Below, in pieces: positions 5,275-38,220 of a stretch of DNA of 64,000 nt (positions are counted from its first letter, which is position 1; every line of letters starts with the position of its first letter). The notes below the pieces were generated by a model. That model did not search any database, was not told where the DNA came from, and saw only the letters and a list, made by a program, of their open reading frames with translations. This DNA comes from Candidatus Anderseniibacteriota bacterium (lineage in GTDB: Bacteria; Patescibacteriota; Andersenbacteria; UBA10190), in NCBI GenBank assembly GCA_040900375.1, contig JBBDZC010000021.1, positions 5,258 to 69,257 on the forward strand, written 5' to 3'. The translations under genes and the position numbers were made by a program.

Positions 5275-7065
5275 GTGTCACTACCCGATCAGGGGAGAGA
5301 TTACTACGGATTTTTACTACCTGGTATACTAAGAGCGATGCCTGACGCTGTTGATGAATCAACTTTGCGAAGTTTAGTTGAGCAAAAGCTGCTCACTGTG
5401 ACCCAAGCGGACGAGATTTTAAAAAAACTAGGAGAAGGGGGAGCCGACCTACACAGTTTGGTGGTTGATAGTGGCTTGATTAAAGATCATGACTTTACGC
5501 AGGTGCAAGCGGCCGTTCTCGGCATGACCTACATTGATTTACGAGCGGTCACCATTCCCCGAGAGCTGCTCAATATTATTCCTGAATCAACGGCGCGGGA
5601 GCACTTGATCGTAGCGTATGAGCAAACGGACAGTGAGTTGAAGCTGGCCATGGTCAATCCCAGTGATCGACAGATTGTCGAGTTTATCCGCAAAAAGGTG
5701 GATATGCCGATTGCGGTTGCCTTGGCGAGCCGCCAGGGGATTATGGCGGCCCTGCAGCAATACCAACAGACCCTGACACTTGAGCTGGAGAATGTGCTCG
5801 CCACGAGTAAGAGCGTGATGACGGAAGCCGATCTCAATAAAGCGGCGGAAGATTTACCGGTCGTGCGCATTACGGACCTCATTTTAAAACATGCTATTTT
5901 ACAGGGCTCATCTGACATCCATATTGAACCGACGGAACAGAACGTGATTGTCCGCTACCGCATTGATGGCATTTTGCATGATGCATTAACGCTTCCCCGG
6001 TATGTGCTCGCGGGTCTGGTGGCGCGGATTAAAGTCTTGAGCCGGTTGAAGATTGATGAGCATCGGCTGCCGCAAGACGGTCGCTTCAAGATTGAAAGTG
6101 AGGATTATAAGATTGCTTTTAGAGTTTCGATCTTACCTGTCTTTGATGGTGAGAAAGTAGTCATGCGTCTCCTGGATGAGTCGGGGCATGGCTTGGGGCT
6201 CGATAGCATTGGCTTGCGCCCGTCAGTCCTAGAAGTGTTTCGCCGTAACATTAACAAACCAAATGGGCTCATTTTAGTCACTGGCCCGACCGGCTCGGGA
6301 AAAACGACCACGCTCTATGCGGCGATGAAAGAGCTAAATCAGGCGGACGTAAACATTAGTACGGTGGAAGATCCAATTGAGTACCGTATGCCGCGCATTA
6401 ATCAGACACAAGTCAATCCTAAGATCGGCCTCACTTTCTCGAACGGCTTACGTTCACTGGTGCGTCAAGATCCCGACATTCTGATGGTCGGTGAAATTCG
6501 CGATGAAGAGACCGCCTCGCTAGCAGTCAATGCGGCGCTCACCGGTCACTTAGTGCTTTCCACGTTGCACACCAATAGTGCGGCCGGGGCCTTGCCGCGC
6601 CTGCTTGATATGAAGGTCGAAGCTTTTCTGGTCGCCTCGACGGTCAATCTCTTGATAGCGCAGCGTCTCGTGCGGCGGTTATGCCAAGAGTGTCGGCGCG
6701 AGCAGAAATTAACGAAGGATGTGGTGACGGAGTTAGCCAAGTCATTTAGTATAGAGACACTGGTGGCGACCTTGGTGCGGGAAGGGGTAGTGGCCGACAA
6801 GCAAGCTCTCGAAGACTTAGTGGTTTATGAAGCGGTTGGTTGTAAGCTGTGCCAGGACGGTTACAAAGGCCGCAGCGGGATCTATGAGTTGTTGGAAATG
6901 ACTGACTCGATTCGCAAGATTATTACTTCCAAGACGACAACGGCCGAACTGGAGGACGCCGCGCGAGCGGAGCAAGGCATGGTCACCATGATTGAAGATG
7001 GTTTTATTAAGGTGGTTGAGGGACAAACGACTATTGAAGAAGTGATGCGTGTTTCCATGGAGTAA
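5275..7065 (+). CDS. pilB: Type IV pilus assembly ATPase PilB (GspE family)
   Basis: N-terminal GSPII_E_N-like region, Walker A GPTGSGKTTT, tetracysteine motif CQECRRE...CKLCQDGY; GTG start with GGAGG 9 nt upstream. Confidence 0.9.
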   Translation: MSLPDQGRDYYGFLLPGILRAMPDAVDESTLRSLVEQKLLTVTQADEILKKLGEGGADLHSLVVDSGLIKDHDFTQVQAAVLGMTYIDLRAVTIPRELLNIIPESTAREHLIVAYEQTDSELKLAMVNPSDRQIVEFIRKKVDMPIAVALASRQGIMAALQQYQQTLTLELENVLATSKSVMTEADLNKAAEDLPVVRITDLILKHAILQGSSDIHIEPTEQNVIVRYRIDGILHDALTLPRYVLAGLVARIKVLSRLKIDEHRLPQDGRFKIESEDYKIAFRVSILPVFDGEKVVMRLLDESGHGLGLDSIGLRPSVLEVFRRNINKPNGLILVTGPTGSGKTTTLYAAMKELNQADVNISTVEDPIEYRMPRINQTQVNPKIGLTFSNGLRSLVRQDPDILMVGEIRDEETASLAVNAALTGHLVLSTLHTNSAAGALPRLLDMKVEAFLVASTVNLLIAQRLVRRLCQECRREQKLTKDVVTELAKSFSIETLVATLVREGVVADKQALEDLVVYEAVGCKLCQDGYKGRSGIYELLEMTDSIRKIITSKTTTAELEDAARAEQGMVTMIEDGFIKVVEGQTTIEEVMRVSME

Positions 7066-7297
7066 TTGCCGGGGCGATTGAGGGATTGTCAGTTCGGTTA
7101 TCGTTGCTCAAGAAAGTCTGTTAAACTAAGCACATTGATTAGTCTTTGAGCTTATTGTATGCCCCGTAGAATCACCTCGATCACCCTCTCGTCTTAAAAT
7201 ATATGGATACAATACCTACCAACCTTATTTGTCAGTCACCGCTTCCTCTCACCGCTGTCCGGCCTACGCCGGACATATCGAGGTAGCTCTACGGGGT

Positions 7298-30789: not shown

Positions 30790-31239
30790 ATGAAGTCACT
30801 TGCCTACAACAAACGCGCGGTCTTCGACTACAAAATCCTTGAAAAATTCGAGGCGGGCTTGGTGTTGCTCGGCACCGAAGTAAAATCTGTCCGCGCCGGT
30901 AACATGAAACTGCGCGGGGCGTTCGTAACGATGCACGGCGACGAGGCGTTTTTAACTAATGCCACCATTCCGCCCTGGCAACCAGCCAACACTCCCGAAT
31001 CATACGACCCCGAGCGGCCCCGCCGCCTGTTGCTTAAGAAAGAAGAGCTCAAGCAGCTTCTCGGCACGCGCCGCGCCGGTGGATTGACAATAATACCAAT
31101 TCGTGTTTATAATAAAGGTCCCCATTTGAAGCTAGAAATTGCGCTCGCCCGGGGCAAAAAACAGCACGATAAAAAGCAGCAGAAAAAAGAACGTGACATT
31201 CAGCGGGATGTTGATAGAGTGTTACGAGGAAAGGAGTAG
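30790..31239 (+). CDS. smpB: SsrA-binding protein SmpB
   Basis: NKRAVFDYKILEKFEAGLVLLGTEVKSVR...ARGKKQHDKKQQ. Confidence 0.9.
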   Translation: MKSLAYNKRAVFDYKILEKFEAGLVLLGTEVKSVRAGNMKLRGAFVTMHGDEAFLTNATIPPWQPANTPESYDPERPRRLLLKKEELKQLLGTRRAGGLTIIPIRVYNKGPHLKLEIALARGKKQHDKKQQKKERDIQRDVDRVLRGKE

Positions 31240-31430: not shown

Positions 31431-31834
31431 GGGCATGCTAGGCCTCGATAGGGTGTTGTTTCAACAATCAGCGTGTCGTGAGTAGTGAATTGGCTCACGC
31501 AAATCTCTTAATTCACAATTGGTACGTGCAAACCTTACCCAGCGCGTGAAGACCGCTTTTGCTAACGCATTTGCGTTCCCTTCATTTGCGCCTGTTGTGG
31601 CCTAATCGCCACAACCATCGCTACCCAAAAGCCTCGGTTGGCGTAGCGGTGATATATTAGAGGCTTGAGAAAGTAACGCCGAGTGTCGTTACTACCTGAC
31701 CTGCACACCACTCTCGCGATGACAAAATATTTGCTTATTTTTTCTTGTCATAGCGATTCTCACCCAAATAAGCTACGCACGTAGAAACTTGTTGTGGCGC
31801 ATTCTACACGGCGGTTCAATTCCGCCCATGTCCA
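31431..31834 (+). ncRNA. ssrA: tmRNA (ssrA), about 404 nt; CCA not encoded
   Basis: 5' GGGCATG pairs with 3' CATGTCC (G-U at position 3); 5' region CUAGGCCUCGAUAGGG resembles the E. coli AUUCUGGAUUCGACGGG; T-arm GGCGG-TTCAATT-CCGCC before the acceptor 3' strand; adjacent to smpB; candidate tag frame GCT AAC GCA ... GTG GCC TAA (ANAFAFPSFAPVVA). Confidence 0.6.
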
Positions 31835-31836
31835 CT

Positions 31837-31980
31837 CTTCGACTCGGCGCTAAGGCGCCTCGCTCAGAGTAAACCCTTCGCTCTTAGAAAGCTTTCTCGT
31901 ATTAAGAAAGCTTTTTTGGTATGCGCCGAGACGAAGAACCCTGAGCGAAGTGCTGAGGCACGAAGTCGAAGGGCCTCGCT
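31837..31980. repeat. Imperfect long inverted repeat flanking the tmRNA terminator
   Basis: CTTCGACTCGGCGC (31837-50) vs GCGCCGAGACGAAG (about 31923-36); GGCGCCTCGCT / GGGCCTCGCT direct copies. Confidence 0.4.
31868..31918 (+). terminator. Candidate rho-independent terminator after tmRNA
   Basis: AGAAAGCTTTCT palindrome then AAGAAAGCTTTTTTGG. Confidence 0.4.
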
Positions 31981-32065
31981 AAACTTCTTACAAAACAATA
32001 CTGGGTTCAGAAAGATTTTTCGATGTGTCCTGAATCATTAAATAAATTCTTGCTATAGTAGAATA

Positions 32066-32320
32066 ATGTCCTGGTATATCTATATTGCCCAAGCTCGCAC
32101 CGGCAGATACTACGTCGGCATAACCACTGAACCTGAGCGACGGATTCAAGACCATAACCAAGGCAAGGGCGCTCGCATGGCAGTTAATCAAGGACCATTT
32201 AGATTAGTGTACACATCACCCGCTCTCCTAAATCAATCCGTTGCCCGAAAACGAGAGATTCAGATTAAAGGTTGGAGTCGATCAAAGAAGATAAAGTTAA
32301 TTAACGGTGAGTTGGTGTAA
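32066..32320 (+). CDS. GIY-YIG nuclease-family protein (YhbQ/UPF0213-like)
   Basis: WYIYIAQARTGRYYVGITTEPERRIQDHN. Confidence 0.75.
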   Translation: MSWYIYIAQARTGRYYVGITTEPERRIQDHNQGKGARMAVNQGPFRLVYTSPALLNQSVARKREIQIKGWSRSKKIKLINGELV

Positions 32321-32374
32321 CTCCTGGCAAAGCCTTCCGCAACAAGCGGTTCATCTAATAAAAGTACCTGACCC

Positions 32375-32400
32375 CTTTATTCTCTTTATTCTCTTTATTC
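32375..32400. repeat. Tandem 9-nt repeat CTTTATTCT x3
   Basis: Directly read at 32375-32400. Confidence 0.6.
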
Positions 32401-32630
32401 GACCCGCAAAGTTGATGTCGTGACCGTCTCCCTTGAAGAGGCCAATCTGCTTCACAATGCCCTTTTCATCGCTAAGGGCATATTTTTCTATCAGAGGGAA
32501 GGTAAACATAAAATATACTGGTATGTAAGGTTTACAGTACACTCTTTGCTGGTAGCGGATCAACTATACCAGTAAAAAGGTGTAAATATGGCTCTAAAAA
32601 GCCGTAAAATAGCACTATCAACCACTGGCT

Positions 32631-32659
32631 ATTGACAAAATGACCATTTGGGAGTATCA
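32631..32659 (+). promoter_or_regulatory. Sigma-70-type promoter TTGACA-N17-TATCAT
   Basis: Consensus -35 and near-consensus -10 with 17-nt spacer, about 90 nt upstream of the 32751 ORF. Confidence 0.5.
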
Positions 32660-32750
32660 TTTAGCGTTCTGGATAGTTCCTTCCACTGGCAGGCCGTAGG
32701 TTTAGCACGTTGCTAGACAGGCGGTAGGCCACATACCCCACAGGTGTCAC
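32660..32750 (+). promoter_or_regulatory. Structured leader element, copy 1
   Basis: CACTGGCAGGCCGTAGG - hairpin GTTTAGCA/TGCTAGAC - AGGCGGTAGGCCAC, then ATG. Confidence 0.5.
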
Positions 32751-33074
32751 ATGTTTAGCAAGGACGATCTAACGAATGCGCCCGAGGACGAGTTGTGCGG
32801 CGCGATCACTATTGTTCTCGAGGACTTCAAGAAAAGCTCTCAATATCATCTGATGATCAATCAGTCGCATGAGAGTGACTGGACCTTGGGTGCCCGCTTT
32901 GAGGAACACCTTGCGGCGCTGCATATCAAGGAAGCTTATCGGGTGCTGTGCGTGCTCGTGGCTGAGTATCGACGGCGCGGCCTGTCCCTACCGGACAACG
33001 TGAATGCCGACTTGAAGCGCAACGTCGCGCTCAAGGAGACCGACATCGATGTCGCCTATCGCTGCCTTGTGTAG
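32751..33074 (+). CDS. Hypothetical protein (107 aa)
   Basis: ORF following leader copy 1; no recognisable domain. Confidence 0.5.
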   Translation: MFSKDDLTNAPEDELCGAITIVLEDFKKSSQYHLMINQSHESDWTLGARFEEHLAALHIKEAYRVLCVLVAEYRRRGLSLPDNVNADLKRNVALKETDIDVAYRCLV

Positions 33075-33100
33075 ATTGCTGCTGGTGTGCTGTATGCACA

Positions 33101-33239
33101 GGGTGAGTACCATGAAATCTCACCACTTTCTTTTCTCTGATCTCGGAAGAGGTCGTAGGTGAGAAGGTTCTTTTCACCGGCAGGCCGTAGACTGCGTGCG
33201 TTACGCAGTAAGCGGTAAGCCAACACGGGAGGTACTGCA
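33101..33239 (+). promoter_or_regulatory. Structured leader element, copy 2
   Basis: GTGAG-TACCATGAAAT-CTCAC hairpin, then GGTTCTTTTCACCGGCAGGCCGTAG - hairpin ACTGCGT/ACGCAGT - AAGCGGTAAGCCAAC, GGGAGG, ATG. Confidence 0.5.
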
Positions 33240-33509
33240 ATGTACATTCACTACATCCAGTTCAATGGCAGCTCCACCTATCGCCTCTATATCGGCCCGT
33301 TCGATACCGAGGTGCAGGCCGAGGTCTTCAAGCAGCGCATGGTGCGTACCCGCGAGAGCTCACCGCATCTCACGATGCAAGGGGTCGCTCTTGAGATCGC
33401 GCCGGGCATTGACGGTCGTTGGGGTGTCGTTACTCCCGATCAGTTCAAGGGCTTCTGCGTGTTCGATATGAACACCGAGCGGGAGGTCAATGTCCCGCTG
33501 GCCGACTAA
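33240..33509 (+). CDS. Hypothetical protein (89 aa; weak SPOR-like pattern YRLYIGPFDTEVQAEVF)
   Basis: ORF following leader copy 2. Confidence 0.5.
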   Translation: MYIHYIQFNGSSTYRLYIGPFDTEVQAEVFKQRMVRTRESSPHLTMQGVALEIAPGIDGRWGVVTPDQFKGFCVFDMNTEREVNVPLAD

Positions 33510-33533
33510 CTGATCAAACGGTGTGCATAGCAC

Positions 33534-33677
33534 GAGGCGAGTACCGTAAAATCTCGCCACCTTTCCTAATGCAAGCTCACAAGAGATTGTATCAGGAAAG
33601 GTTCTTTTCACTGGCAAGCCGTAAGTCCGACGCGGTGTCGGATAGGCGGTAGGTCACTACTCGAAAGAGGTGCTGCA
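33534..33677 (+). promoter_or_regulatory. Structured leader element, copy 3
   Basis: GCGAG-TACCGTAAAAT-CTCGC hairpin, CCTTTCCT...AGGAAAGG hairpin, GGTTCTTTTCACTGGCAAGCCGTAAG - hairpin TCCGAC/GTCGGA - TAGGCGGTAGGTCAC, AGAGGTG, ATG. Confidence 0.5.
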
Positions 33678-34127
33678 ATGGCACGTCCACGCAGTGAGTT
33701 TCTAGGTTCGCTCGGCAAGCTGTTCTCCATCTTCAAGAAGGTGGCGGACGCGGTGCTGGAACTGGGTGGTAGTGATGACGACATTATCCGTATCAACACG
33801 GATGAAGTTCTCGCTACCAACATCGCCTATCTACTTCTCGCATCGAGAACGCGAGGTGACCTCCGCGGTGGTTTCGGCGGCACGCTAGTTGCCGTACGCA
33901 ATCCACTCACAGGTGACCTCATCCGTGTCGGCGAGCCCTTCTATGTGAAGCCGGTGGGGTCTCCTCTCGGCAAACGCGCGTGGGGCGTGGTGACCAAGAT
34001 ACGTCCACCGTCATCAGACCCTCTCGATAGATCTCTAAGCATCAGCTACCCCTTCATCGGTCACGGAGGAGAAGCTGAGCTCTCTGACCTCGGCACGTTC
34101 GGCTTCAACGAGATTGAGAAGCAATAA
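33678..34127 (+). CDS. Hypothetical protein (149 aa)
   Basis: ORF following leader copy 3. Confidence 0.5.
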   Translation: MARPRSEFLGSLGKLFSIFKKVADAVLELGGSDDDIIRINTDEVLATNIAYLLLASRTRGDLRGGFGGTLVAVRNPLTGDLIRVGEPFYVKPVGSPLGKRAWGVVTKIRPPSSDPLDRSLSISYPFIGHGGEAELSDLGTFGFNEIEKQ

Positions 34128-34136
34128 CAGACACTC

Positions 34137-34172
34137 ACCGGCGATCTGGCAACAGGTCGCCGTTTTCTTTCG
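34137..34172 (+). terminator. Rho-independent terminator
   Basis: CGGCGATC-tggcaaca-GGTCGCCG stem (one G-U) followed by TTTTCTTTC. Confidence 0.5.
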
Positions 34173-34402
34173 CGCGGCCGCCCCGTTACTACTTACTAAC
34201 TATTACTATCTTATTCTCTGTATGTGTTCTTACTGGCTGAGAGAACCCACCTTTTCGCCGACCCCTATTTTACCCCTTCCTAACCCCGCCGCAGCGTATT
34301 CCTGCATATTTTGGCTCTCTGACGCGTGATATTCGAGTTGCGGCGCCCAGTCCAATACGGTATCAAGAAAGCGGTTCCAGTTTTCTGACAAGATGTCCAC
34401 TA

Positions 34403-34423
34403 TTTGTGATAAGTTATCACAAA
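34403..34423. promoter_or_regulatory. Perfect 21-bp palindrome TTTGTGATAA-G-TTATCACAAA (candidate operator)
   Basis: Read directly; 34 nt upstream of the 34457 ATG. Confidence 0.5.
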
Positions 34424-34456
34424 TCAAAAACTGTTCACCAGTTTGGAGAACAAGCA

Positions 34457-34657
34457 ATGGCTATTTCAACAGAAAGACGCAACGAGATTGCATGGCAGTA
34501 CTTGGTCTTCCAGATTCGAGAAGCTGGGCTACATCACACGAACTTCGACTCTCCCGACACAAGACAAAAAATCCGTGTGACCGCAGGGAAAATTGGAGTT
34601 TCTTTTGAAGAAGCGATGGAGTTTGTCAAAGCAGTCCTTGCCGAAACCAAAGATTAG
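34457..34657 (+). CDS. Small hypothetical protein (66 aa)
   Basis: ATG with GGAGAA 6 nt upstream; ORF track's longer 34406 start would read through the palindrome. Confidence 0.45.
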   Translation: MAISTERRNEIAWQYLVFQIREAGLHHTNFDSPDTRQKIRVTAGKIGVSFEEAMEFVKAVLAETKD

Positions 34658-34671
34658 TTATCGCATGTGTC

Positions 34672-34720
34672 AGAACCCCTTCACCATAACTGGTGAGTGC
34701 ATTAAGGGTTCTTTTTCTTT
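34672..34720 (+). terminator. Rho-independent terminator
   Basis: AGAACCC ... GGGTTCT stem followed by TTTTTCTTT. Confidence 0.55.
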
Positions 34721-34847
34721 GGTCAGTATGGTATAGAAATCCTGGACTTCGGCATAGAGAGGTTCCAAGAATTTTCCTTCATGTCCACTATTATCTAAAA
34801 TACTTCTTCTCGTTGACCGGCTAGTGATCCCGGTATAGAAAGAAGGC

Positions 34848-35420
34848 ATGGCAAAGCGCGCGTTTATTGTGCATGGTTGGGACGGCTATCCAGAAGAAGG
34901 TTGGTTTCCCTGGATGAAGCGCGAGCTCGAACAAAGAGATTTTGTTGTCGCGGTGCTGAGTATGCCTGATCCAGCGGTGCCAACAATTGACGCCTGGGTT
35001 GGACACCTGGCACAGATTGTGGGAGAGCCAGATGAGCAAACATATTTTTTAGGTCACAGCATTGGGTGCCAGGCGATTCTGCGGTATGTAGCCTCGATAA
35101 GCGGCCGAAAAATTGGTGGCATTGTGTTAGTGGCTGGTTTTTTGGAGCTTAAGAAACTGGAGACGGACGAGGAGGAGACGATTGCCCGGCCGTGGCTGAC
35201 AACCCCTATTGATTTTAAACAGGTGCAGCAAGCGACACGTAATATTACCGTTATTCTCTCTGACAATGATGCTTGGGTGCCGCTTGCAAGAAACACAGCG
35301 CTTTTTAAACAGCACCTTAATCCTCGTATTATCGTTGAGCACGAGAAAGGGCACTATAGCGGGAGCGATGGTATTACCGAACTACCAGCAGCGCGCGACG
35401 CGGTGGTGCAGGATAACTAA
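34848..35420 (+). CDS. Alpha/beta hydrolase (YdeN/RBBP9-like serine hydrolase)
   Basis: IVHGWDG, nucleophile elbow GHSIG, size about 190 aa. Confidence 0.7.
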   Translation: MAKRAFIVHGWDGYPEEGWFPWMKRELEQRDFVVAVLSMPDPAVPTIDAWVGHLAQIVGEPDEQTYFLGHSIGCQAILRYVASISGRKIGGIVLVAGFLELKKLETDEEETIARPWLTTPIDFKQVQQATRNITVILSDNDAWVPLARNTALFKQHLNPRIIVEHEKGHYSGSDGITELPAARDAVVQDN

Positions 35421-37682: not shown

Positions 37683-38051
37683 TCACGAGGGAACGGGTAC
37701 ATCCGCATCATGAAAAATTTCGAACGTGATAATGACCGCCCTGGCGATAGCCCCGATGGTCATATTTCGAGAGCAGGCATTGTTCCGGAGTGTATTATAG
37801 GCGCAGGACTCATCCATCTTGCCAAATTTCATAAGTAAGCTCTTGGCTTGCTCCACAAATGGGCGATCAGCAATCCTTTGCCGTAGCTTCTCGTTTTCCT
37901 GGTTAACGTTTTTACAGTCTTGGGCGACATTGGCTTGCGCCTGCTTGAGCTGTCTCACTTCTTGCCACAGCTTCGCGATTTCTTGCTGAAGCGCTCGGAT
38001 TAGCGGTGACGCTGGATCAGCAGACAATGTCGTTAGGTCAGATGCTGACAT
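37683..38051 (-). CDS. ANTAR-domain protein (RNA-binding antitermination regulator) with N-terminal coiled coil
   Basis: VEQAKSLLMKFGKMDESCAYNTLRNNACSRNMTIGAIARAVI matches ANTAR three-helix pattern; start at ATG 38051 with AAGGAG RBS. Confidence 0.65.
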   Translation of the reverse strand: MSASDLTTLSADPASPLIRALQQEIAKLWQEVRQLKQAQANVAQDCKNVNQENEKLRQRIADRPFVEQAKSLLMKFGKMDESCAYNTLRNNACSRNMTIGAIARAVIITFEIFHDADVPVPS

Positions 38052-38220
38052 ACTCATCTCCTTCATGCAGCGGCTCATACCAAACCTATTCTTGGTGCTC
38101 TCCACCATGGAGAGCGGTGAAAAGTGCAGATCAGCCACCCGTTACTACTGTGCGGTACTCTATTCAATAATGTTTTTAAAAATTAGTCAAGCGCGGTGTT
38201 CTATAATACTATCAGAGGTA

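Follow-up and report, generated by a model that had tools for sequence, protein, structure and literature searches.

Phage T7 and the Bacillus subtilis phage SP82 carry intercistronic RNase III sites in their early operons, and hairpins that act as translational operators are familiar from the ThrRS operator, the leaders of ribosomal-protein genes and the coat-protein hairpin of MS2. In T4-type phages the PeSL, which combines a terminator stem-loop with an early promoter, acts in transcription (PMC2839356, PMC4122927). Here we analyse a stretch of 64,000 nucleotides (nt), which we call the window, from a contig of Candidatus Anderseniibacteriota bacterium (JBBDZC010000021.1), in which a hairpin of ~45 nt, which we call H3, stands before each of three small open reading frames (ORFs). 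Between ORFs, H3 is preceded by two further elements, an H-type pseudoknot and a second hairpin, H2. The H3 element is a member of none of the three classes just named. Together with the junction module it appears to be a new structured cis-acting mRNA element, and the H3 modules probably control the expression of cassette genes after transcription.

Each of the known systems shares some features with the one described here. Like PeSLs, the modules are short, conserved and repeated between small orphan genes of hypervariable regions, with breakpoints that fall in the modules and with genes between them that are gained, lost or replaced, as seen when the related contigs that we label L141 and L097, L106 and the window, or L071 and the window are compared. 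Unlike PeSLs, the window modules have no internal promoter, H2 has no U tract in the L097 lineage, and the modules are covarying RNA structures that include a pseudoknot, keep a fixed distance to the AUG and lie on a chromosome of the Candidate Phyla Radiation (CPR) rather than in a phage. As in the T7 and SP82 sites, irregular hairpins lie between small genes of an operon with a strong promoter, and their upper stems vary while the loop region is conserved. However, there is no sequence or model similarity to those sites, H3 has two symmetric 2x2 internal loops instead of one asymmetric loop, and it also occurs in monocistronic leaders. With translational operators H3 shares conserved unpaired purines and a short fixed distance from the ribosome-binding site, and with the ThrRS operator also a symmetry that suggests a dimeric ligand; but the same H3 is repeated before unrelated genes of one operon, the Shine-Dalgarno sequence (SD) and the AUG lie outside it, and the protein that would read it is putative.

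One promoter and one terminator enclose the three ORFs, so that the interval singled out by an earlier note on this DNA is a single transcription unit. A scan of 31800-34900 gave one promoter-like site and one plus-strand terminator, and the TTGACA-N17-TATCAT promoter that the earlier note had placed before copy 1 is indeed the only such site in that interval. Internal promoters were seen neither in the window operon by the scan nor in the other modules by eye. Each of the three ATGs has an SD-like sequence before it, and the +1 of the operon promoter is predicted ~8-10 nt upstream of a conserved linker that leads into H3. The parts of the unit are the following (aa, amino acids; bp, base pairs).

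32632-32660, plus strand: promoter of sigma-70 type, TTGACA-17-TATCAT, 11 of 12 matches

32676-32736, plus strand: linker GUUCCUUCCAC and H3 copy 1, helix 32687-32731; R1 model 77 bits, E 3e-17

32751-33074, plus strand: ORF1, orphan cassette gene, 107 aa

33167-33227, plus strand: linker GUUCUUUUCAC and H3 copy 2, helix 33179-33221; R1 model 76.6 bits

33240-33509, plus strand: ORF2, cassette gene, 89 aa

33601-33661, plus strand: linker and H3 copy 3, helix 33612-33656; R1 model 77.8 bits

33678-34127, plus strand: ORF3, last gene of the operon, 149 aa

34139-34172, plus strand: intrinsic terminator closing the operon, a 10-bp stem (34139-34162) with 7 GC pairs, then TTTTCTTTCG

The three recurrent structured leaders are real. 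They correspond to a 57-nt repeat (32676-32732, 33167-33223 and 33601-33657; identity 68-74%), and the pattern GGCARGCCGTAR-N12-30-ARGCGGTARG matches exactly these three sites and none in 100 shuffled sequences; a covariance-model scan of the 64 kb with filters off found no fourth copy. From its base upward, H3 consists of a lower stem of 3-4 bp (UGGC/GCCA), a 2x2 loop, a 5-bp middle stem, a second 2x2 loop and an upper stem, some 20 bp of helix in all. Both internal loops have the form 5'-AR/5'-AR and lie exactly 5 bp apart, which makes the helix nearly two-fold symmetric. The middle stem of the window copies, GCCGU/GCGGU, is closed by G.U pairs at both ends and is invariant across the three, while the sequence of the upper stem is free (7-8 bp with a loop of 3-5 nt in the window; 7-9 bp in the family). 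Folding energies range from -23.5 to -24.6 kcal/mol, with z about -3.5 (RNAfold -24.2 kcal/mol, z -3.7, for copy 1). Copy 1 represents the promoter-proximal form, without pseudoknot or H2; the upper stem of copy 3 is identical to that of copy a in L071, although the genes downstream differ. The conserved left and right flanks in fact base-pair with each other, as opposite strands of a single uninterrupted helix with two 2x2 purine loops. Their GCSGTARR half-sites, which the earlier note thought could also be a protein-binding direct repeat, form the middle helix and look like direct repeats because that helix is nearly two-fold symmetric.

Exact-pattern scans of IMG/VR viral contigs, species-representative genomes and metagenome contigs see only GCCGU/GCGGU middle stems and therefore underestimate the true distribution of H3. 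The strict pattern gave 2 matches in IMG/VR, 32 in the species-representative genomes and 57 in the metagenome contigs; all of these matches except L071 and L081 proved to be chance matches in GC-rich coding sequence, and 30 viral matches to a looser pattern were rejected, none scoring above 18 bits with the model. Both L071 and L081 encode a protein that starts like ORF3, and further loci were retrieved through ORF3 homologues and then scanned with a covariance model built from seven copies. About 25 copies of H3 on related contigs resulted, all loci outside the window being short metagenome contigs: two copies in L071, one each in L081, L094, L101, L105, L107, L108 and L142, four in L102, three in L106 and up to seven in L097. 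All of them are on the coding strand, a short way before an ORF. Scores are 25-83 bits for good copies and at most 22.7 bits for decoy loci with conserved flanks. L092/L093, a GC-rich contig whose family member carries a cold-shock domain, has no match to the model; its only counterpart of H3 is an irregular and divergent hairpin whose end lies ~17 nt from the AUG. In L097 a stretch of 1.8 kb without called genes (5325-7137) separates the TrmB gene from the next H3-headed cassettes; it has no Rfam match.

Among the 23 copies fitted by the model, 92.0% of the paired cells are indeed paired, compared with 26-40% after the partners had been shifted by 1-3 columns, and 75 cells show double changes, against 25.2 +/- 4.7 in shuffles, none of 500 shuffles reaching the observed number. 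Because an alignment made with a covariance model leans towards that model, we ran a second test with MAFFT and RNAalifold on 25 copies, which gave the same fold with compensatory double changes at 12 of 15 pairs. The middle stem itself takes the forms GUUGU/GCAAC (in the L106 copy orthologous to window copy 2), GCGGU/GCCGU (L108), GCUUC/GGAGC (L094) and GCUCU/AGAGC (L102). Selection on RNA secondary structure, suggested by the earlier note on the strength of three paralogues, is thus supported by ~25 copies from several contigs, and the refuting case that the note had named, recent duplicates without covarying homologues, does not apply. Moreover, G.U far outnumbers A.C (68 against 9 of 375 cells; G.U makes up 18% of the paired cells), and therefore the folded molecule is the sense strand, most simply the mRNA. 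The loops are conserved as well: the four loop strands begin with A in 25, 24, 22 and 22 of 25 copies, their second base is a purine in 23-25 of 25, and the spacing of 5 bp is fixed. We propose, from this pattern of conservation, that H3 may be specifically recognised through its loop bases and their fixed spacing.

The place of H3 in the leader is equally constrained. Its base lies 15-23 nt from the AUG in 22 of 24 copies, mostly 19-21 nt, and 6-9 nt upstream of a strong SD, with an unstructured spacer rich in CA or in A; in the two outliers, at 39 and 51 nt, this spacer contains an additional small hairpin. H3 follows directly on a sigma-70 promoter (TTGACA-17-TAnnnT) in window copy 1, L071a, L081, L094, L097a, L101, L102a, L105 and L107. 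It is more than an intergenic spacer, being present in single-gene leaders too. For most promoter-proximal copies the predicted transcription start coincides with the ~11-nt linker (GUUCUUUUCAC and variants) or precedes it by no more than ~10 nt; in L102a it precedes H3 by ~35 nt. The linker reads GUUCUUUUCAC, GUUCUUUGAC or GCUCUUUGAA and varies even in a single contig (GCUCUUUGA, GCACAUUUUC and GGUACUAAC in L102; GYACAUUU in L097). As a possible anti-SD it was rejected, its complementarity to the SD region being no higher than that of shuffled linkers (mean z -0.12, 24 copies).

A separate observation, made by eye, concerns the start codon itself. In genes of the ORF3 family the 3' end of the SD can pair with codons 1-3 (GUGCC...GGCAC or GUGC...GCAC) in a putative hairpin of 4-5 bp with the AU of the AUG in its loop, at 33668-33692 in the window and in L094, L097c, L102d, L105, L107, L108, L141 and L142. 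Its two sides are also constrained by the SD and by Ala-Arg codons.

Between ORFs the module has three parts, of which the first two lie as follows in the window.

33083-33124, plus strand: pseudoknot of junction 2, with strand a UGGUG at 33083-33087 and a mini-hairpin at 33087-33099

33102-33107/33119-33124, plus strand: H1 of junction 2, GGUGAG/CUCACC; the start of its loop, UACCA (33108-33112), pairs with strand a, and the rest is A-rich

33125-33168, plus strand: H2 of junction 2, a hairpin of 18 bp including 5 G.U pairs, then a U-rich tail

33518-33558, plus strand: pseudoknot of junction 3, with strand a ACGGUG at 33518-33523 and a mini-hairpin at 33523-33533

33536-33541/33553-33558, plus strand: H1 of junction 3, GGCGAG/CUCGCC, with strand a' UACCGU at 33542-33547

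33559-33602, plus strand: H2 of junction 3, an 18-bp hairpin, then a U-rich tail

In the pseudoknot, 5-7 bases at the start of the H1 loop form pairs with strand a, usually with a mini-hairpin between the two partners, and the remainder of the loop is A-rich. Strand a lies 11-13 nt upstream of H1 in the window and 7-17 nt over the modules, being adjacent to H1 in one. The pairing is found in 10 of 14 intercistronic modules, and in six of these at most 3% of shuffled loops pair as well. Taken alone, the a/a' pairing of copy 2 is not above shuffles (a fraction of 0.37 of the shuffled loops are as good), while the duplex of junction 3 reaches -7.6 kcal/mol, with 3% of shuffled loops as good; between the two junctions an A-to-G change in one strand is matched by U-to-C in the other. 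Over the modules the partners covary (UGGUG/UACCA, ACGGUG/UACCGU, CCGGUG/UACCGG, GUCGGUG/UACCGAC, UCUGG/CCAGA and AAAGGC/GCCUUU). The upstream hairpin with the TACCRTRAAAT loop that the earlier note described is half of a pseudoknot, and its conserved TACCRT is explained because the first loop bases pair with strand a. The note's alignment of the -10 box of the first promoter with this loop was not reproduced by MAFFT, and it has no counterpart in the other loci.

The pseudoknot could be a small self-cleaving ribozyme or a ligand-binding aptamer that gates the next cistron, given its compact H-type form, in which the third loop is rich in A and the stem (GGYGAR/YUCRCC) partly conserved, its constant site between stop codon and H2 (in 6 of 9 modules its start is 6-10 nt away from the stop codon before it) and the terminator-like H2 that follows in the window lineage. 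We nevertheless regard this as very improbable. Four of the 14 junctions lack the pseudoknot, as do the promoter-proximal genes, invariant unpaired positions are few, and no known ribozyme or riboswitch model matches. With Rfam 15, the whole window at gathering threshold gave the transfer-messenger RNA (tmRNA) only, 32300-34400 at E<=10 gave one chance match to a small RNA outside the modules, and eight related loci at E<=1 gave nothing on any module. That the earlier note could assign the element to no known class is thus supported: there is no Rfam match, and the element does not qualify as an attC site, a CRISPR array or a riboswitch.

H2, the third hairpin that had been noticed in copies 2 and 3, is present as described, but it extends over an 18-bp helix there and over 16-21 bp in all 14 modules; each copy contains 1-5 G.U pairs, and the sequence shows no conservation between lineages. 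In the window lineage it runs into a U-rich tail, which the L097 lineage lacks, so H2 is not a canonical terminator everywhere; the terminator scan of 31800-34900 did not flag H2 in the window. The last gene of each operon is followed by an ordinary terminator in place of the junction module. In L142 (150-195) a promoter-proximal H3 keeps an H2-like hairpin of 19 bp without a pseudoknot, a hybrid which indicates that the promoter-proximal and intercistronic forms are not strictly distinct.

The dimensions of H2 raise the question of whether punctuation is the main role of the modules. They could be endonuclease sites, at which an enzyme like RNase III would cut H2 and/or H3 and so release monocistronic mRNAs with protective terminal hairpins. 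In favour of this, H2 stays at 16-21 bp, about two helical turns, with a free sequence at 14 of 14 junctions, and the lengths of both H2 and H3 (~20 bp) are compatible with the two turns of double-stranded RNA that RNase III calls for. Further, the conserved internal loops and the pseudo-two-fold axis of H3 would suit a dimeric nuclease. In promoter-proximal copies the +1 is predicted at the linker, the element that comes after H2 in the junctions, so that processed and primary mRNAs would share a 5' end, and a strong promoter before small orphan genes and a single terminator resembles a phage early operon. On the other hand, H3 persists where no genes need separating, in single-gene loci and immediately behind promoters. 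The proximal box of E. coli RNase III requires Watson-Crick pairs, and it is there, 2-3 bp from the dyad, that H3 has its symmetric 2x2 loops. As for a phage-like operon, neither the proteins nor either of the motif patterns were found in IMG/VR viral contigs once the chance matches are set aside. For these reasons we consider it unlikely that processing is the main role, although cleavage may play a part in the function that we propose below.

The linker, in turn, brings to mind processive antitermination. The boxB hairpin of lambda has boxA on its 5' side (PMC8632103), and linker and H3 stand in the same order; a precedent for a pseudoknotted antitermination RNA between cistrons is EAR in the Bacillus eps operon (PMC8632103). 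By analogy, linker and H3 together might form a nut- or put-like signal that loads onto RNA polymerase behind the promoter and behind every gene and lets it read through the terminator-like H2. As in nut, the rrn boxA-boxB elements, HK022 put and EAR, a U-rich linear element stands beside a hairpin after a promoter; UUCUUUU follows H2 in the window lineage; and the linker sequences resemble the general boxA consensus, GCUCUUUAACAA, or GUUCUUUGAAAA in Firmicutes. The resemblance does not go far, however. The linker is boxA-like in about half of the copies and variable even in one contig (L102), H3, a 20-bp helix with two internal loops, is unrelated to put and to boxB with its 5-bp stem and GNRA-like pentaloop, and H2 lacks a U tract in the L097 lineage and went unflagged as a terminator in the window. 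The modules thus do not fit a lambda-type nut site, in which NusB-S10 binds a conserved boxA and an N protein binds boxB, and an arginine-rich N-like protein is not present. Nor would antitermination explain a distance of 15-23 nt to the AUG, which is unexpected for nut or put. We think it improbable that the modules act in this way.

The genes between the modules change from one relative to the next. ORF1 has no family match, though it is called as a gene in independent assemblies; ORF2 has one homologue, P0158, with 74% identity, which lies in the differently composed array of L106, where an extra ORF follows it. Apart from this pair, the ORFs behind H3 that do not belong to the ORF3 family are mutually unrelated and match nothing in Pfam, PHROG, PADLOC or NCBIfam. 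L071 shares the promoter (nearly identical), the 3' flank and the terminator with the window but has a different first gene and two genes only. L141 and L097 are syntenic between a 213-aa gene and the TrmB gene, except that two cassettes are missing from L141, whose sequence switches from the context of L097 copy a to that of copy c inside H3. The module behaves like a cassette junction, one of the options in the earlier note: close relatives hold different ORFs between the same modules. A terminator equivalent to that of the window operon follows the family gene in L071, L081, L094, L141 and L142. In L102 (1575-1688) one H3-headed cassette consists only of a hydrophobic peptide of 37 aa (MLGKMIGKVFDFFGGILALLIMTSPIWLLIMVLTGRL), directly followed by the next H3 and a family gene.

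ORF3, by contrast with its neighbours, belongs to a large family. The statement that the three proteins resemble no known family holds for Pfam, but the N-terminal domain of ORF3, ~55 aa long (MARPRSEFLGSLGKLF..GGSDDD), is conserved in 285 clusters at 50% identity. It starts at residue 1 almost always, whereas the C-terminal part varies and is mostly unassigned, with some cases of Sigma70_r4, one RNA polymerase alpha C-terminal domain (CTD) and one cold-shock domain (CSD). The fusions of the N-domain to Sigma70 region 4, alpha CTD or CSD were seen in proteins P0005, P0006, P0008 and members of A7, and such domain partners hint that the family works in transcription or on nucleic acids. In every locus whose downstream region was read, the family gene closes the unit, and NCBI places the ORF3 protein in a metagenome-assembled genome of Candidatus Andersenbacteria, within the CPR. 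No relatives of ORF1, ORF2 or the ORF3 N-domain occur in IMG/VR viral contigs. A phage origin of the genes was rejected on this ground, PHROGs, PADLOC and NCBIfam also having given nothing.

Such arrays resemble integrons, and one could imagine the modules as DNA recombination sites, with H3 folding as single-stranded DNA, in the manner of attC, for a site-specific recombinase. Unrelated small orphan ORFs on the same strand do form arrays, their separators conserved in structure and variable in sequence, with cassettes present or absent between relatives and with one junction inside H3. The details do not agree. The best-paired strand of H3 is the coding strand, and 18% of G.U fits RNA, whereas attC recombines through the bottom strand. 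There is no RYYYAAC/GTTRRRY core, for H3 ends in NGGC...GCCA(C/A)A and the linker GTTCTTT has pyrimidines where RRRY is required; extrahelical bases are absent and the loops are symmetric. H3 also follows promoters in single-gene loci and stands before the first gene of the window array, where an integron has no attC, and its distance to the AUG is fixed. Finally, no recombinase domain was found in the 10 kb downstream and none in the ORF list from ~3.6 kb upstream. We regard a role as recombination sites as scarcely credible.

Three other known structures were considered for H3 and set aside. Kink-turns (L7Ae, box C/D) combine a 3-nt bulge with tandem sheared 5'-GA/5'-GA pairs, whereas the loops of H3 have no bulge and carry 5'-AR on both strands, often AA/AA. 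ANTAR targets are two adjacent hairpins with hexaloops, while H3 has loops of 3-7 nt on a single long helix and H1 has loops of 8-18 nt. TIGR (TIGR-Tas) and CRISPR arrays have short tandem repeats with short spacers lacking self-complementarity, and the comparison fails because the copies here are 434-491 nt apart with ORFs between them and the variable part is self-complementary. A gene for an ANTAR-domain protein, of the RNA-binding antiterminator family, does lie 3.5 kb downstream of the operon (37683-38138, minus strand); none was seen at the other loci.

We propose that H3 is a post-transcriptional cistron header that is read by a trans-acting factor, with the pseudoknot and H2 insulating one cistron from the next and with the modules as breakpoints, a reading to which we assign a probability of roughly 0.5. 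The whole region would then be one polycistronic mRNA in which every cistron has a standard structured header (the ~11-nt linker, H3, the unstructured CA- or A-rich spacer, a strong SD and the AUG) and every junction a three-part RNA module. H3 would be the RNA operator for the factor, most simply a homodimeric protein, as its near two-fold symmetry suggests, and, as H3 stands at the 5' edge of the ribosome-binding site, the bound factor could govern, for all cistrons at once, translation initiation and/or the lifetime of the mRNA. As insulators or punctuation, the pseudoknot and H2 may halt upstream ribosomes and exonucleases, or may offer a site for cleavage specific to double strands. Each cassette would in consequence act as an independent mRNA with a 5' end like that of the primary transcript. 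Because they are repeated, the modules could also serve as breakpoints for the gain and loss of orphan genes.

Several points weigh against this proposal. The factor is hypothetical, and in the ORF3 family, the sole consistently linked gene, the N-terminal domain is net acidic. No relatives with solved structure turned up in profile searches of PDB sequences, and the AlphaFold model of ORF3 is of low confidence, its pLDDT of 60.8 being too low for a fold search. Moreover, the link between H3 and the ORF3 family is partly a matter of ascertainment, because most loci were retrieved through ORF3 homologues, the motif itself having led only to L071 and L081. The four weakest copies, all in L097, score 14-16 bits, within the range of the decoys, and were accepted on position alone. 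Since H3 does not overlap the SD, the factor would have to act sterically or via mRNA stability, and a hairpin that insulates or stabilises without any protein would explain the position of H3, though not its conserved loops.

The surroundings of the operon contain the following genes.

30790-31239: smpB, upstream neighbour

31431-31837: tmRNA gene, 87.8 bits with Rfam, missed by ARAGORN

32066-32320: small GIY-YIG gene, between the tmRNA gene and the operon

The GIY-YIG gene, which the array had been said to follow, is absent from five other annotated loci and is thus of no evident relevance. Directly 3' of the tmRNA end lies a palindromic element of ~135 nt (31836-31971), with arms at 31836-31850/31923-31937 (93%) and 31837-31870/31938-31971 (71%), and similar TTCGACTCG...CGAGTCGAA elements, two or three of them, stand at the corresponding site ahead of the homologous operon of L071; the element looks like a repeat of the miniature inverted-repeat transposable element (MITE) kind. 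The whole operon is flanked by a direct repeat, TTATTCTCT[T/G]TAT, in tandem at 32377-32398 and single at 34211-34223, with no other exact copies in the 64 kb (chance expectation 0.22) and the same motif after the terminator in L071. These repeats may delimit an inserted unit. The 3' end of the tmRNA, CATGTCCACTCTT (31827-31839), recurs as GATGTCCACTATT and CATGTCCACTATT (34392-34404 and 34780-34792), ~2.6 and 3.0 kb downstream. Short enough to be due to chance, this repeat may be the att remnant of an islet that comprised the GIY-YIG gene, the operon and a 66-aa ORF, without an integrase. A perfect palindrome, TTTGTGATAA-G-TTATCACAAA (34403-34423), looks like an operator and stands ~35 nt before a small ORF (ATG at 34458, end at 34657), for which no family match was found.

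More speculatively, H3, the pseudoknot and H2 could make up an RNA-level cassette system dedicated to the CPR, in which H3, a pseudo-symmetric hairpin with two AR loops, would be the operator for a lineage-specific dimeric factor, a factor that could be the linked N-domain family; we hold this as a tentative idea, possible but less than probable. If it is true, the factor would co-ordinate hypervariable arrays of orphan genes, the pseudoknot and H2 would be a new device for intercistronic processing or for the handling of ribosomes, and the system would parallel integron cassettes or phage PeSLs in function, but on the mRNA. The CPR (Patescibacteria) make up a large part of bacterial diversity, with tiny genomes and few recognisable regulators, and we found no structured regulatory RNA described as specific to them. 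The recognition surface of H3 is unusually clear, with four nearly invariant adenines in two loops 5 bp apart beside the ribosome-binding site, and H3 delimits the swappable orphan genes as well as a family of 285 clusters that is fused to domains related to transcription. Thus H3 gives a handle on the expression and exchange of accessory genes in the CPR, on the factor that would read the hairpin, and on the annotation of small genes by their header.

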